A DNA stretch of 64,000 nt from Octopus sinensis. Its lineage: Eukaryota. The first letter of the stretch is position 1; each line of letters begins with the position of its first letter. The notes beneath the pieces were generated by a model. It saw nothing but the letters and a program-made list of their open reading frames with translations, ran no database searches and was not told where the DNA came from. Below, one piece after another: positions 479 through 61,370 of this stretch. Location: the NCBI RefSeq assembly GCF_006345805.1, contig NC_042999.1, positions 44,330,001 through 44,394,000 of the forward strand, written 5' to 3'. The position numbers and the translations under genes were made by a program.

Positions 479-820
479 ATGTTGTCAACTTAATGTGACA
501 GTCCAATGAAAGGGAAGAATACTGTGAGATTTAGAAATATATTGTTTCTATTTTCAAAAATCAGTGAATGTATTTCACTTGAAATATGTTTTCAAAGGCA
601 GATGGGCATTGAGAGCTAGCAAGCCATGCTACTCCAGAGTGATGATGAGCAATGGCTCTGAAACTAGTCTCTGGCTTTGCTGGGTGGAGGTGCTTATCTC
701 TACTTTGAAACATAAGGACACAGGAAATGTATCAAGTCCAACAAGAAACTGTGTTTCGTAGGGCTAAATAACAGTAGCATTCTTCCCTTTTATGGGACTG
801 TCGCATTAAGTTGACAACAT
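479..820. mobile_element. Inverted-repeat-bounded element (Penelope-like remnant or MITE) carrying a hammerhead motif
   Basis: About 42-bp imperfect inverted repeats (atgttgtcaacttaatgtgacagtcc..gggaagaat 479-520; attcttccc..gggactgtcgcattaagttgacaacat 779-820) with a hammerhead-like core at 634-674. Confidence 0.55.
634..674 (+). ncRNA. Minimal type I hammerhead ribozyme with C3G core mutation (probably inactive)
   Basis: ccaga-GTGATGA-t-gagc-aatg-gctc-t-GAAA-ctag-TC-tctgg: stem I ccaga/tctgg, stem II gagc/gctc, palindromic stem III actagt, GUC triplet. Confidence 0.7.
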
Positions 821-1140
821 GTAGATGACTTTAATCATGGTTGGTATATTCCAAGTTGCAAATTAGAATTTAGTGTTATTATCTATTAACTCTTGATACC
901 AACTTCCTGTTTTAAACCAATCTAAATTAACAGCTTGTCTCAAAATGTTATGCTAATTTGTTCTTGATCACCAAAATAATTAGTTATTTTCAAAATTAAT
1001 TGAAACAAAGGCAGTGTATTTCAGCAGAAAGATAACAAAAGAGTTAATGATTTTAATGATTTATTTATTTATTTGTTAATTAATGATTTGATTAAAGAGA
1101 GTTTAAACTTAGAGAAAATAATAGAGATTTCATTGTCATT

Positions 1141-1440
1141 GTGATATTGGGATTTATTGATTATGAACAGAAGTGGAGGAGTGATTGTATCGATGCTTTC
1201 CATAGCAATATGGGTCCTACAAAATCCTTGAACTTTGAAGCAAAGCATTTTGAGTTGTTTCTTCAACTTCTTCCTGAAAGATTTTTTGTCAGGATTGAGA
1301 GCACAGGATATACACATCAACTAAGCAACATCACTTTCATTACATCAATGGGGGAGATTAAGTTATATCTCGGAATGCTTTTGCTAATAGTTGTGCAACT
1401 TCCAGATTAAAGATTACTAGAGCACAAATTCAGCTCTTGA
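1141..1440 (+). mobile_element. Degenerate piggyBac-like transposase fragment
   Basis: ELFLQLLPERFFVRI...ITSMGEIKLYLGMLLL resembles the N-terminal part of piggyBac DDE transposases; followed by stops. Confidence 0.4.
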
Positions 1441-1777
1441 GACAGGAATTGATATCATGTAGATATGTGAAAATATATACCTGTAAGCAAATTACATATA
1501 TTCAACTTACCTGGGCAGGTAACAACAGCATCACAACTGGTAAAACTCGATGACAGATAAAATAACATTTCACATCATACACCAACAATCATTACATGTT
1601 ATCACCAAGTTTCATTGAAATTCATAGAAAAGTTATATTTTTATGATTTTTATTCTGGAATAACTGCATGTTTCTGAAAATATCTAGTTTATGACAAGAT
1701 TGGGAGATTTACCGAGAAAAAGCAGTACAATAATTAAAAAGTTGAAATAAAATTTATTTTATTAATTTCTTTTACAG

Positions 1778-1893
1778 TTGCAGAACCCACAGATGCAAAC
1801 CCTCATAAGTAACCCACGGGCTTTAGAAGCTATAATGCAGATCCAGCAGTCCTTGCAACAGTTACAGAATGAAGCTCCTGGACTTTTTCCAGG
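1778..1893 (+). CDS. UBQLN: Ubiquilin internal exon (STI1 region)
   Basis: tttac[40 protein letters not shown](G)|GTatgc; NPRA..AI.QIQQ..QQL..EAP is the ubiquilin STI1-II signature; phase 0 to 2. Confidence 0.93.
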
Positions 1894-3461
1894 GTATGCA
1901 TTTGCTTTCTTAACTAAAGCAAACTATTTAAACATGACTGTCTTCTTTATTTTGTTCTATTTTTAATCTCATTTTCTATTTGTTGGAGATAAACGAAATA
2001 GAAAAAATTCTCCAAATTTTATTATTATAAGTAATTTCTAGGCAGTGAGCTGGTAATGATTGTTAGCATGCCAGGCCAAATGCTTAGCAACATTTTATCC
2101 ATTTTTATGTCCTGAATCCAAATTCTGCTAAAGTTGACTTTGCCTTTCATCCATTTGGGTCAATTACATCAACCCCAGTCAAGTACTGGGGTTGATGTAA
2201 TTGACTTCCACTTCAAAAACTGCTGGCCTTGTGCCAAAATTTGAAACATTATTATAAATAATCTCTCAATTTCTTTTTTTTAAAGAAATACTTAAAATCA
2301 TATTTGTAGGGCCTGGACAGCTCTCCGACTAGCCAGCTCCTGCCAAACCATCCAGCCCATGTCAGCATGGAAAATGGATGTTAAATGATAATGATTTGTA
2401 GAAACTAAAGAAGGAATTATCCATTTGTGACTGATTTCAAAATATTACAAATGATTGTAAAGAATCCACTTATTAACAGTAAATCAATCTCTGTTAGCTA
2501 TGGAGATAAGTATTCCAGTTGTCTTGTCAGCAGAACTGTTTGCTTGTTGAATTATAATGCAATTGGTTGAATATTCAACAGACAGTTGAGTCAACACGAT
2601 ACAATGTGTCACAAGGCTGACCTTTTGAATTATTGGTACAGTCTAGTATGCATGCTGCCAAAATTTTCATCTACCCAACTTCACTCACAAGGCTATGGTA
2701 AAAGATATTTTCCTTAGATGCTATACTGTTGGGTCAAACTCTGGACCTTATGATTTTGATACCACCTGTCTGTAACTACTTACCTACATAAAACACCACA
2801 ATGTCTACCAATCAAAATGTTGATTGTGTTTTTAAAGGTTTAGGTCATCATCATCATCATTGTTTAACATCCGTTTTCCATGCTAGCATGGGTTGAGTTC
2901 GTTAAATGGTGATCTGTATTATTAATAATTATTTCAAGGTAATGAGTTGAATCGTTGGTTGAAATGCTCAGCGGGATTTCTTCCAACTTTTTATGTTCTG
3001 AGTTTAAATTCCACTGAGGTTGATTTTTGTCTTTCATCCTTTGTGGGTTGATAAAATAAGTATCAGTTGAACCCTGATGTTGATTACATCGACTCATCTC
3101 CTCCCTCAAAATTGCTGGCCTTGTACCTAAATCTGAGACTGCAGAGAGCTGAAAGATAAAGTATTTTGCCAATCTGCCAGCCTGAATTAGTATTTTTTTT
3201 TTTTTGACTATGAAAGAATGAAAAGCTGGGCAGGATTTGAACTCGTAACACTCAGATTTGGATAGCAAAGCATGCTATCCATTGCTCTAATAACTGTGGC
3301 AACTCTCCACCTTAGTGTAGTCCTAGATATCTCTAAAAATACTTTGGGCTAAACATAAAAGAAAAGTTATTTTACTAAGCCCATAATTTAAATTGACAAT
3401 GGTTTTGAATATATAGAAAGGGTAGGCAGTGTATTGTTATTAGAAATCTGGTCATAAGAGT

Positions 3462-3787
3462 TAATGCTGGAGCACTGCCTTGGAAGATTTTAAATCGAAC
3501 AAATCGATCCCAGGAATTATTTTTTAAGCCTGGCACTTATTTTATAGGTCTCTTTTGCCAAACCGCTAAGTTACCGACACATAAACACAATAACACCAGT
3601 TGTCGAGTGATGATGTGGGGACAAACACAGACAAACACACACATACATACATACATATATACACACAAGGCTTTTGTTGGGCTGAGGCTATAGTAAAAGA
3701 CATTTGCCCAAGGTGCCATGCAGTGGGACTGAATCCTGAACCCTGTGGTTGGGAAGCAAGCTTTTTACCACGCAGCCACGCCTGCAC
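3462..3787 (-). mobile_element. tRNA-derived SINE family A (CORE-like ccttgggcaagt block)
   Basis: Matches the many copies listed below, e.g. 30925-31340. Confidence 0.8.
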
Positions 3788-3851
3788 TTATATTGAAACT
3801 TTTTTTAAATATTTCTATTGAAAATATATTGATCTTACTTTTCTCTTACAG

Positions 3852-59636: not shown

Positions 59637-59738
59637 TCCTTACAGCTGTTTCAAAAATAGATGCACAGATGATGCATTTCTCAGCAAACGAACAATAGAT
59701 ATCCATATAAGCAGTGATCTATTCCATCATCAGAGAGA
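59637..59738 (-). ncRNA. Hammerhead-like motif with extended stem II
   Basis: tctct-CTGATGA-(74 nt closed by gaatagat/atctattt)-GAAA-cagctg-TA-agga; stem I weak. Confidence 0.5.
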
Positions 59739-60100
59739 GAATGAGGTAGTTTCTTAGTAGAAGGCTTTGGTCTACCATCAGTGTAGTAGATCAAAGCTTT
59801 CTATCAAGGATCCTCTCCAATGATAGAATTGATTGCTACTTAAGCTCTCTACTGAAAATACCAGTTATTTGCCTGTTTATATTACCATTTTATTATACAT
59901 GTATCTGCTCAAATGATAAACCACCTATAGCCAATCATTGTTAGGTAGCAACATCTCTGTTTTCAGTTGGAGTCTTAGGTGGCAAGTCAATTTGAGCACT
60001 AATTGTATGTACATATTACATTACATCATCAAACATAATATTACATGAATTTTACATGTATACAAGTGCTTATACATATATACAAACATACATGTTTTAA

Positions 60101-60670
60101 TATTGGGTTGACCGGAAAGTTCCTGCCAATTTTTAAAGGAAAGGAAAAGGTCAATAAATACTTGCCATTACATTTTTAATCAACCAAATATGAATCATTG
60201 TATTGCACTATGCGTCTCCATCTTTCCTTTAACTTGAAAATACCCACTTCTCAGAGTTGAGGTGGTTTCATGGCAAAGAATACATCAAGGTCTCTTTTTA
60301 CGTCATCCAAAGAATTGAAATTTTTACCATTAAGACTATTCTGCAGAGACCTGAATAAGTGGAAATCCAAAGGAGCAATATCTGGTGAATATGGAAGGTT
60401 GGGTAACACATCCCAGCTGAGCTGCAGCAATTTTTGTCTGGTTCCCAAAGCATCAAGTGCCGAAAATGAACTTTCTTATCTTCCATTTTAAAGGGTTACA
60501 GAATTAACACAGGTTATAGGAACATAAACTTTCTTCCACGAAAAGATAGCTTAAACTGTGCTCTAAATAGAGGTGTAATCAAATCCTATTTTATGGACTC
60601 AACCATGTTCTAAAATAAGTCGAAAGGTAAGCTACTATAAATCGGCACGAACTTTCCGGACAACCCAATA
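60101..60670 (-). mobile_element. Internally deleted mariner transposon
   Basis: TA plus TIRs ttgggttg(a/t)ccggaaagttc; N-terminal MEDKKVHFRHLML fused to C-terminal WDVLPNLPYSPDIAPLDFHLFRSLQN. Confidence 0.92.
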
Positions 60671-60854
60671 CATACATATGTACTTCATACATATATACAT
60701 GCATATCTGCACATATGTACTCATACATGCAAGAGCATATATGCTTTGATGAATTTATCTAAGTTCCAATGGAAGAGCCTTGTGTCTGTTTAGAAGCTGA
60801 CTCTTTTTCCATTGGTGAAGAATTCAAATTATAAAACCATTTGTAAAGACGTAC

Positions 60855-61043
60855 CCTATCAAGTAGGAAGTGCACGGCAGCAGCTTGGTTCAGTTGTGCA
60901 GCTCTATGTAGTGGTGTCATCTTATGAAGATCAGCCATGGAAATGGCAGAGGAGAACTTTTCAGGTTGGTATTTTTGCATATATTCTAGAATTTCCACTT
61001 TGCCTTGTGATGAAGCACAATGAACCGGAGTAGAGAAATCTTC
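60855..61043 (-). CDS. TRPA1: TRPA1-like exon (ankyrin); most 5' exon recognised, gene continues beyond the window
   Basis: tttcAG|EDFSTPVHCASSQGKVEILEYM...MTPLHRAAQLNQAAAVHFLLDR|GTacgt. Confidence 0.94.
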
Positions 61044-61149
61044 CTGAAATATATGATTACGATAAATAAGAACCAGCTCTTTTATCAACATCATGTTTTA
61101 TCTGTTGTTGTTGCTGTTGTCATTGTCATCATCATCATTGTCATGGTCA

Positions 61150-61370
61150 TTGTTCATTATTTACATTATTTACATAATTTACATTCAACGGATATTTGTC
61201 CTCATCTTGTTTGTTGTTAACACGTTTAATACAAAATTTCAAACCTGGGTTCAGGTTCGAAATTTCCCCAAGACACCTGAAGAAGGCTGGAGGGTATATC
61301 AGCTGAAACATTGTGTCAACAACGAACAAGATGGGGACAAATATCTGTCGAATGTAAATAATGTACATAA
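61150..61370. mobile_element. Penelope-like inverted-repeat remnant
   Basis: About 60-bp inverted repeats (61165-61223 versus 61313-61368) enclosing a hammerhead. Confidence 0.65.
61272..61317 (+). ncRNA. Minimal type I hammerhead ribozyme
   Basis: gacac-CTGAAGA-a-ggctgg-agggtata-tcagct-GAAA-ca-TT-gtgtc; 5-bp stem I, 6-bp stem II. Confidence 0.7.

Follow-up and report, generated by a model that had tools for sequence, protein, structure and literature searches.

Minimal hammerhead motifs in six dispersed repeat families of Octopus sinensis, one of them a Penelope-like 3′ end, and their orientation in dynein genes

Cervera and de la Pena (2014; PMC4209133) described minimal hammerhead ribozymes in metazoan Penelope-like elements (PLEs), where a single Schistosoma motif gave no cleavage and dimers gave low cleavage. 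In the Poseidon element of the anole, Frangieh et al. (2024; PMC11167929) observed that the core change C3G abolishes hammerhead activity, that cleavage is not required for insertion in vitro, and that no RNA-seq reads end at the cut site. Here, six motifs of this kind are examined in a 64,000-nucleotide (nt) stretch of the Octopus sinensis genome (NC_042999.1, positions 44,330,001–44,394,000, forward strand; assembly GCF_006345805.1, 2.72 Gb), hereafter the window, which holds parts of a ubiquilin gene and of a gene for a TRPA1-like channel. It is proposed, with a probability of roughly 0.85, that every one of the six motifs represents a minimal type I hammerhead fold located at the 3′ end of its own repeat family, the six families being unrelated. 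One family would be the 3′ end of a PLE, the other five were likely copied by elements of that kind, and single copies in the genome probably leave host pre-mRNA uncut.

Re-reading of the letters placed all six motifs at the coordinates and on the strands given in an initial annotation of the window, and each lies in its own dispersed repeat family, in keeping with the several families which that annotation had supposed and with its expectation of an association with repeats. The family F1 motif at 634–674 (+) has a 5-bp stem I, a 4-bp stem II and a 6-nt palindromic stem III; its C3G change is private, as C3 is present in 24/24 F1 relatives. The F2 motif at 26433–26480 (+) and the F3 motif at 59637–59738 (−) each retain an intact core and an 8-nt palindrome, the latter with a 9-bp stem II bearing a long loop and with 3 contiguous pairs in stem I, against 5 in the F3 family majority. 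The F4 motif at 61272–61317 (+) has a bulged base after A9 and a broken palindrome. A decayed hammerhead (A6G) of a further family occupies 40139–40175 (−; homology about 40062–40181), and a decayed hammerhead-like motif (G5A) of an old family, called 56256 below, occupies 56257–56293 (+; homology about 56171–56396). The individual copies at 634, 40139 and 56256 thus carry one core change each. Core and all three stems are intact in 3/5 relatives examined of the 40139 family, whereas the full core is kept in 0/5 of those examined for 56256, which is on that account the weakest of the six.

Relatives of F1–F4 were the best 24–29 matches to each window copy, and their counts therefore lean towards the letters of that copy. 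Stem III is a short palindrome in 22/24 F1 relatives, in 23/24 F2 relatives, in the F3 majority and, as ACGT, in F4. The CUGANGA/GAAA/UH core appears in type I order in the majorities of four families (F1, F3, F4 and that of 40139); in the F2 majority, position 4 is C. Core position 4 in the 24 F2 relatives lies within CCGA (12), CTGA (8) or CCAA (4), and the canonical U4 of the 26433 copy may for this reason be owed to CpG decay. C at core position 4 is also common or the majority in F3 and in two further families, and several hammerhead families of this genome carry loop 2 inserts of 40–70 nt. The F4 stem III reads ACAT-T in 14 of 29 relatives, ACGT-T in 10, ATGT-T in 4 and otherwise in 1. 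The initial annotation had taken the 61272 stem (aacatt) as near-palindromic; judged by these relatives it is instead a decayed ACGT palindrome, likely broken by CpG decay, both decay products of which occur among them, and the copy is accordingly counted as damaged.

A first descriptor, which required a pair at the base of stem II, found 0/6 motifs, and a second, stricter one found 2/6. The final descriptor, tuned after the motifs had been seen, allows a bulge or mismatch at that base plus one core or palindrome defect; it matches 5/6 motifs (639, 26437, 56260 and 61277 on the plus strand and 59733 on the minus strand), and the 40139 relic fails it. In 200 block-wise dinucleotide shuffles the same descriptor gave a mean of 0.025 and a maximum of 2 matches, none reaching 5, and the count in the window thus exceeds that in shuffled sequence, as the initial annotation had implied. 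An Rfam scan of the window to E = 1 returned no hammerhead. Stronger evidence than any descriptor comes from the family majorities, which were built by homology alone and are independent of descriptors: they recover the fold at the sites where the window copies are defective (C3 in F1, the 5-bp stem I in F3, the palindrome in F4 and A6 in the 40139 family), which argues that the motifs are real.

First-look similarity searches gave 1992 candidates for F1, 3851 for F2, 103 for F3, 3404 for F4, 307 for the 40139 family and 100 for the 56256 family; these are matches, 40 of which were scored per family, and are not copy numbers. In F1–F4 the 3′ end is fixed and the 5′ end varies through truncation, a pattern that F3, which is older, follows more loosely. 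Inverted partner copies occur frequently. Together these features correspond to PLE insertion anatomy as set out in the available text of Craig et al. (2021; PMC8557442). F1 and F4 each have two alternative 3′ ends.

The F1 forward copy at 522–820 (+) is part of a 346-nt circularly permuted, non-coding unit, and its inverted partner at 413–523 (−) has the longer 3′ end, a PLE-type tail. A dimer of the unit is found at locus L098, 6/42 segments exceed one unit plus 15 nt, and 3′ ends cluster 150–179 and 220–239 nt past the cut site. On the evidence of its genomic copies, F1 is a circularly permuted, retrozyme-like unit with one type I hammerhead per unit. The F2 copy at about 26195–26556 (+) is 5′-truncated, and no open reading frame (ORF) occurs in about 800 nt upstream in its longest relatives. 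The F3 copy has a more decayed inverted partner at about 59783–60054 (+). Three 884–886-nt units, 99.5% identical, lie at locus L285 (C3:68.51 Mb) and contain an F3-related hammerhead; they were rejected as a retrozyme array and may represent a local duplication or an assembly repeat, given their identity and their inclusion of unrelated flank.

The initial annotation had suggested linking the flanks of the motifs to Penelope-type reverse transcriptase (RT) and GIY-YIG endonuclease ORFs, and this succeeded for F4. For F1–F3, no RT-endonuclease ORF was seen within 1.5 kb of 24 relatives each, the span walked upstream, and no link to an ORF emerged for the two relic families. The F4 copy of the window (61252–61398, +), with a short inverted partner piece at 61177–61223 (−), is a 5′-truncated PLE 3′ end without the tRNA-like head and ORF of longer copies. 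Those longer copies enter the hammerhead end from an endonuclease-like C-terminus. A search with the F4 C-terminal peptide gave 3071 candidates, and 7/9 loci picked by the F4 ORF continue into the F4 3′ end, the remaining two being interrupted by another repeat or ending inside the head. No intact full-length F4 ORF was found among 150 scored, the longest open frame having 551 residues; this frame leads directly into the F4 end and matches a complete 781-residue, Pfam-confirmed RT plus GIY-YIG PLE of the same genome with E = 5e-43. These comparisons identify F4 as the 3′ terminus of an RT-endonuclease PLE of the Penelope/Poseidon type. The clade label is provisional, being taken from the missing CxxC linker and sequence motifs and not from a tree.

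A search with the GIY-YIG family reached mainly a different, Neptune-like PLE (so labelled from its CxxC linker) and not the families of the window. This element has its own U3-A8 hammerhead in 6/25 GIY-YIG loci. At loci L282, L283 and L284 it has long open RT plus GIY-YIG frames of 780–883 residues, several of 781, and is likely young; a second hammerhead family stands 600 nt further on at L283.

The octopus families share much with the PLE hammerheads in the available text of PMC4209133: a type I fold with a stem I of 4–5 bp and a palindromic stem III, numerous families within one genome, copies that are mostly single and derive from truncated elements, pairs on opposite strands 100–700 nt apart, and U3-A8 core variants, which were also seen in this genome. 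F4 has the same bulged base after A9 and G10.1–C11.1 pair. Unlike the published motifs, F1, F2 and F3 show a mismatch at the base of stem II in place of the bulge plus G–C, C4 is the majority form in F2, and several families carry long loop 2 inserts. The available text of PMC4209133 names no octopus and reports no orientation test. F4 further resembles the Anolis Penelope/Poseidon element, as far as PMC11167929 describes it, in an RT followed by a GIY-YIG-like C-terminus and a hammerhead near the 3′ end, and it resembles PLE insertions in PMC8557442 in its inverted 5′-truncated copies and optional tail of 30–40 nt.

F1 is comparable to the metazoan non-LTR retrozymes outlined by Cervera and de la Pena (2020; PMC7229834) and by Li et al. 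(2026; 10.64898/2026.07.22.740005), with which it shares a non-coding unit, here of 346 nt, with one type I hammerhead, as well as a tandem dimer and longer-than-unit copies. It differs from the retrozymes there described in its minimal PLE-type motif and its mostly dispersed copies with inverted partners. The link to PLEs and retrozymes made in the initial annotation is therefore borne out by the ORF-to-hammerhead continuity of F4, the permuted F1 unit and the PLE-type end structure. The hammerheads are thus genuine members of an established class, carried by new octopus families.

Hammerhead motifs are abundant outside the window, as the initial annotation had anticipated in supposing very many such ribozymes. 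One intact 46-nt F4 motif has 258 exact copies in the genome (135 forward and 123 reverse; control 0). In 1.4 Mb of DNA inside ten dynein heavy-chain genes (0.8 Mb on the plus and 0.6 Mb on the minus strand), 16 strictly intact motifs were found, against 0 in each of five shuffles. Scaled to the assembly, and if dynein introns are typical, this corresponds roughly to 30,000 intact and 180,000 recognisable copies.

The same dynein DNA, a part of the roughly 3.4 Mb mapped across 18 loci, was used to compare orientations. Gene spans and strands were drawn from three dynein heavy-chain domains, with exons unmasked and nested genes unchecked. Twenty-five seed clusters or singletons were carried on as families, and 17/25 profiles were scored; the other eight had drifted onto F1 (two), lacked a match in the genes (four) or gave no structure on the majority sequence (two). 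All profile matches numbered 113 (56 sense, 57 antisense) and motif-spanning copies 94 (46 sense, 48 antisense; p = 0.92), with a sense fraction interval of 0.38–0.59. The core was intact in 23/46 sense and 23/48 antisense copies (p = 1.0), non-CpG core changes occurred at 28/426 and 27/451 positions, and the strictly intact motifs divided into 8 sense and 8 antisense. Fully intact copies numbered 9/46 sense and 14/48 antisense (p = 0.34; odds ratio 0.59, 95% interval 0.20–1.70), a count in which three U3-A8 variants (2 sense, 1 antisense) are scored as damaged and the odd-length palindrome of one family keeps all its copies out of the fully intact class. Seventy-eight insertion events comprised 32 with sense copies only, 37 with antisense copies only and 9 with both (p = 0.63), and young copies stood at 10 sense to 17 antisense. 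Divergence from the family majorities was 6–7% in the core and 14–18% in the flanks, a contrast that is consistent with selection for the motif in source elements but is inflated by the use of intact motifs for seeding.

Four non-ribozyme repeats served as controls. Three showed no skew (136:119, 143:119 and 105:93), and a tRNA-headed short interspersed element (SINE) in the same DNA stood at 19:51 (events 19:42, p = 0.004), in the same direction in 8/10 genes and tied in 2. The sample can thus reveal a 70:30 skew, which the hammerheads lack; they differ from this SINE at p = 0.006. The SINE family also occurs in the window at 30370–30638. An acceptor-like motif and AATAAA lie on its strand that is disfavoured in sense, and cryptic splicing or polyadenylation may be the reason why copies in that orientation are purged. 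On a separate point, the dynein heavy-chain genes on unplaced contigs such as C8702, C9183, C12462 and C8595 differ from those on the chromosomes in having very short introns, and the assembly may include a second eukaryote.

Host orientations in the window are as first annotated, on exon mapping of the ubiquilin and TRPA1-like genes: the copies at 634 (in a ubiquilin intron), 40139 and 59637 (TRPA1-like) are sense to their host, and those at 26433, 56256 and 61272 are antisense to the TRPA1-like gene. The initial annotation had held that the two best copies are antisense, and this stands for 26433, which keeps core and palindrome, and fails for 61272, which has lost the palindrome. Its companion statement, that sense copies are damaged, applies to C3G at 634 and A6G at 40139; the 59637 copy has a short stem I but keeps core and palindrome. 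Both features are accordingly kept in 1/3 sense (59637) and 1/3 antisense (26433) window copies.

Lone copies are likely silent because a partner would be needed to form stem III. In the tandem or circular RNA of the element itself, two motifs would pair through the palindrome, and the ribozyme would work there. In cofolding, the minimum-energy structure of the 634 copy, and likewise that of the 26433 copy, has a cross-paired palindromic stem III. Once inserted, a solitary copy would decay neutrally, often at CpG, and a lone intronic copy would rarely cut, leaving selection little to see. Splicing can also proceed across an intron cut during transcription. Several points weigh against this account: for 4/6 window copies the dimer of lowest energy differs from the full hammerhead fold, a mismatch replaces the consensus G10.1–C11.1 pair in F1, F2 and F3, F2 and F3 are without a link to an ORF, and the decayed F4 ORFs have no Pfam match. 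In addition, every finer count (fully intact copies, events and young copies) leans slightly towards antisense, none significantly, and dynein heavy-chain genes may be weakly expressed or tolerant. A mild orientation bias of the hammerheads may exist.

The initial annotation suggested a different explanation, in which single sense-strand copies cut pre-mRNA often enough for selection to remove or damage them. The core change in 2/3 sense window copies is in line with it, as are the antisense leans of the fully intact and young copies and the under-representation of Xenopus retrozymes in introns (10.64898/2026.07.22.740005, in the available text of which the words antisense and orientation are absent). 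The dynein counts make it unlikely: copy numbers, core integrity, non-CpG core changes and strictly intact motifs are alike in the two orientations, and the control SINE shows the skew that the hammerheads do not. Neither damage that tracks orientation nor a significant orientation bias emerged in the 1.4 Mb, and selection against sense-intronic activity is not supported by these counts. One contig, from a run presumed to be RNA, joins TRPA1 exons across the intron holding the core-intact sense copy 59637, which likewise speaks against frequent cutting; contigs such as those aligned to 56500–64000 can reveal neither cleavage nor transcript starts. A targeted literature search found no earlier orientation test of such ribozymes.

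A further alternative holds that the host has retained some intronic copies to regulate the RNA of TRPA1 or ubiquilin. The retention of core and palindrome at 26433 and 59637 could be read in this way, yet each is one of many similar copies with a divergence typical of its family, 26433 is antisense, and 4/6 window copies are damaged; this role is very improbable. More improbable still is a chance origin of the motifs within AT-rich intronic DNA. The short stems, the lack of an Rfam hammerhead and the 0/5 intact relatives of 56256 are what chance would give, whereas five motifs over a shuffle mean of 0.025, 16 over 0 in the dynein DNA and majorities that restore the fold are not, and on these sequence comparisons chance is already refuted for five of the six motifs. 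Silent lone copies of mobile-element hammerheads remain the favoured reading.

The head of the longer F4 copies, between stop codon and hammerhead, has a tRNA-type box A and box B 44–45 nt apart, followed by (TAA)n. Both boxes are strictly matched in 6/30 loci, and their spacing fits the SINE promoter consensus quoted in the available text of PMC8969392. Rfam (four loci) and ARAGORN at default settings made no tRNA call for the heads, and ARAGORN at lowered thresholds gave mixed anticodons. Thirty-five head-containing segments (27 from loci chosen by the 3′ end and 8 from the dynein set, split 4, 3 and 1; the set misses one ORF-linked copy that bears a deletion) include 21 that start at −17 to +7 of the head, 11 that start further in and 3 that continue upstream. 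The 5′ ends of partial copies show no pile-up at the cut site (1/20 within 5 nt; a weak result, as short matches are under-detected). Of 61 F4 3′ ends, 21 matches fall at 240–259 and 36 at 270–279, about 30 nt apart, and no tail-to-head junction of a circular unit was seen among the copies listed.

The pile-up at the head suggests, from genomic copies, a SINE-like sub-element of F4. The Anolis PLE, as described, has no counterpart to the boxes and (TAA)n in this position or to the start of most head-reaching segments there. Short schistosome SINE-like alpha elements, with a promoter upstream of a hammerhead, are the nearest parallel in the available text of PMC6765202; in F4 the boxes lie inside an autonomous-type PLE 3′ end, which names the likely mobilising enzyme, and that text describes no such link. 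It is tentatively proposed that the F4 PLE captured a tRNA-derived promoter for RNA polymerase III (Pol III), that each copy may launch a 280-nt hammerhead RNA, and that the PLE enzyme may retrotranspose it, giving a SINE born inside and moved by a PLE in thousands of copies. This is somewhat doubtful, as many F4 segments fold back at a short native palindrome just at the head start, and the cDNA may simply fold back there with no separate transcript. Under the Pol III alternative, the F4 RNA would start about 10 nt before box A. The 3′ end is the PLE end with inverted partners and not a tail of the long interspersed element (LINE) type, target-site duplications not having been searched for; head-started copies work like a SINE at most and are not classed as one. 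No description of a tRNA-type or Pol III promoter inside a PLE was found in the literature searched, a scope outside which Repbase and subscription journals fall.

Two single F4 loci are of separate interest. At L307:3458-3760, the F4 3′ end is joined to the F2 3′ part 3–4 nt before the predicted F2 cut site; F2 sequence lies upstream too, and this one case may be a nested insertion or a template switch. At L300 (oriented 2677-3132), a 152-residue frame adjoins an F4 insertion, and we take it to resemble mitochondrial ribosomal protein L16.

The host gene at the left of the window is ubiquilin, exon 3856–4263 being 100% identical to a ubiquilin labelled Octopus sinensis. Its last four coding exons are at 1775–1894, 3853–4266, 6260–6343 and 7224–7283 (+), earlier exons lie left of the window, and the 634 motif sits between the exons at −798 to −709 and 1775–1894. 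A tRNA gene scoring 52 bits, whose variable arm is long, lies on the opposite strand in a ubiquilin intron (5608–5689, −). The TRPA1-like channel is 97% identical to an Octopus vulgaris protein over the matched part; exons for residues 287–1173 span 17721–61049 (−), and residues 8–288 lie beyond the right end of the window. A TRPA1 intron contains a fold-back element, a long near-perfect inverted repeat at 38642–39063, with an Rfam plant-miRNA match under threshold. Units of 23 nt form an array at 37919–38310, and a frame with weak C2H2 zinc-finger matches at 36373–36759 (−) is probably the end of a LINE ORF.

The analysis adds octopus families to a known hammerhead class, together with a negative orientation result. 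By rough extrapolation, introns can carry predicted ribozymes on their transcribed strand in tens of thousands of copies without a strong sign of purging, which fits the view that such motifs need a partner and are silent alone. If the proposal for F4 is true, PLE reverse transcription would have a short substrate of defined extent, and PLE ends could give rise to repeats that combine a promoter with a hammerhead. Were the F4 head a working Pol III promoter, it would show a PLE giving rise to a SINE-like RNA with a ribozyme.

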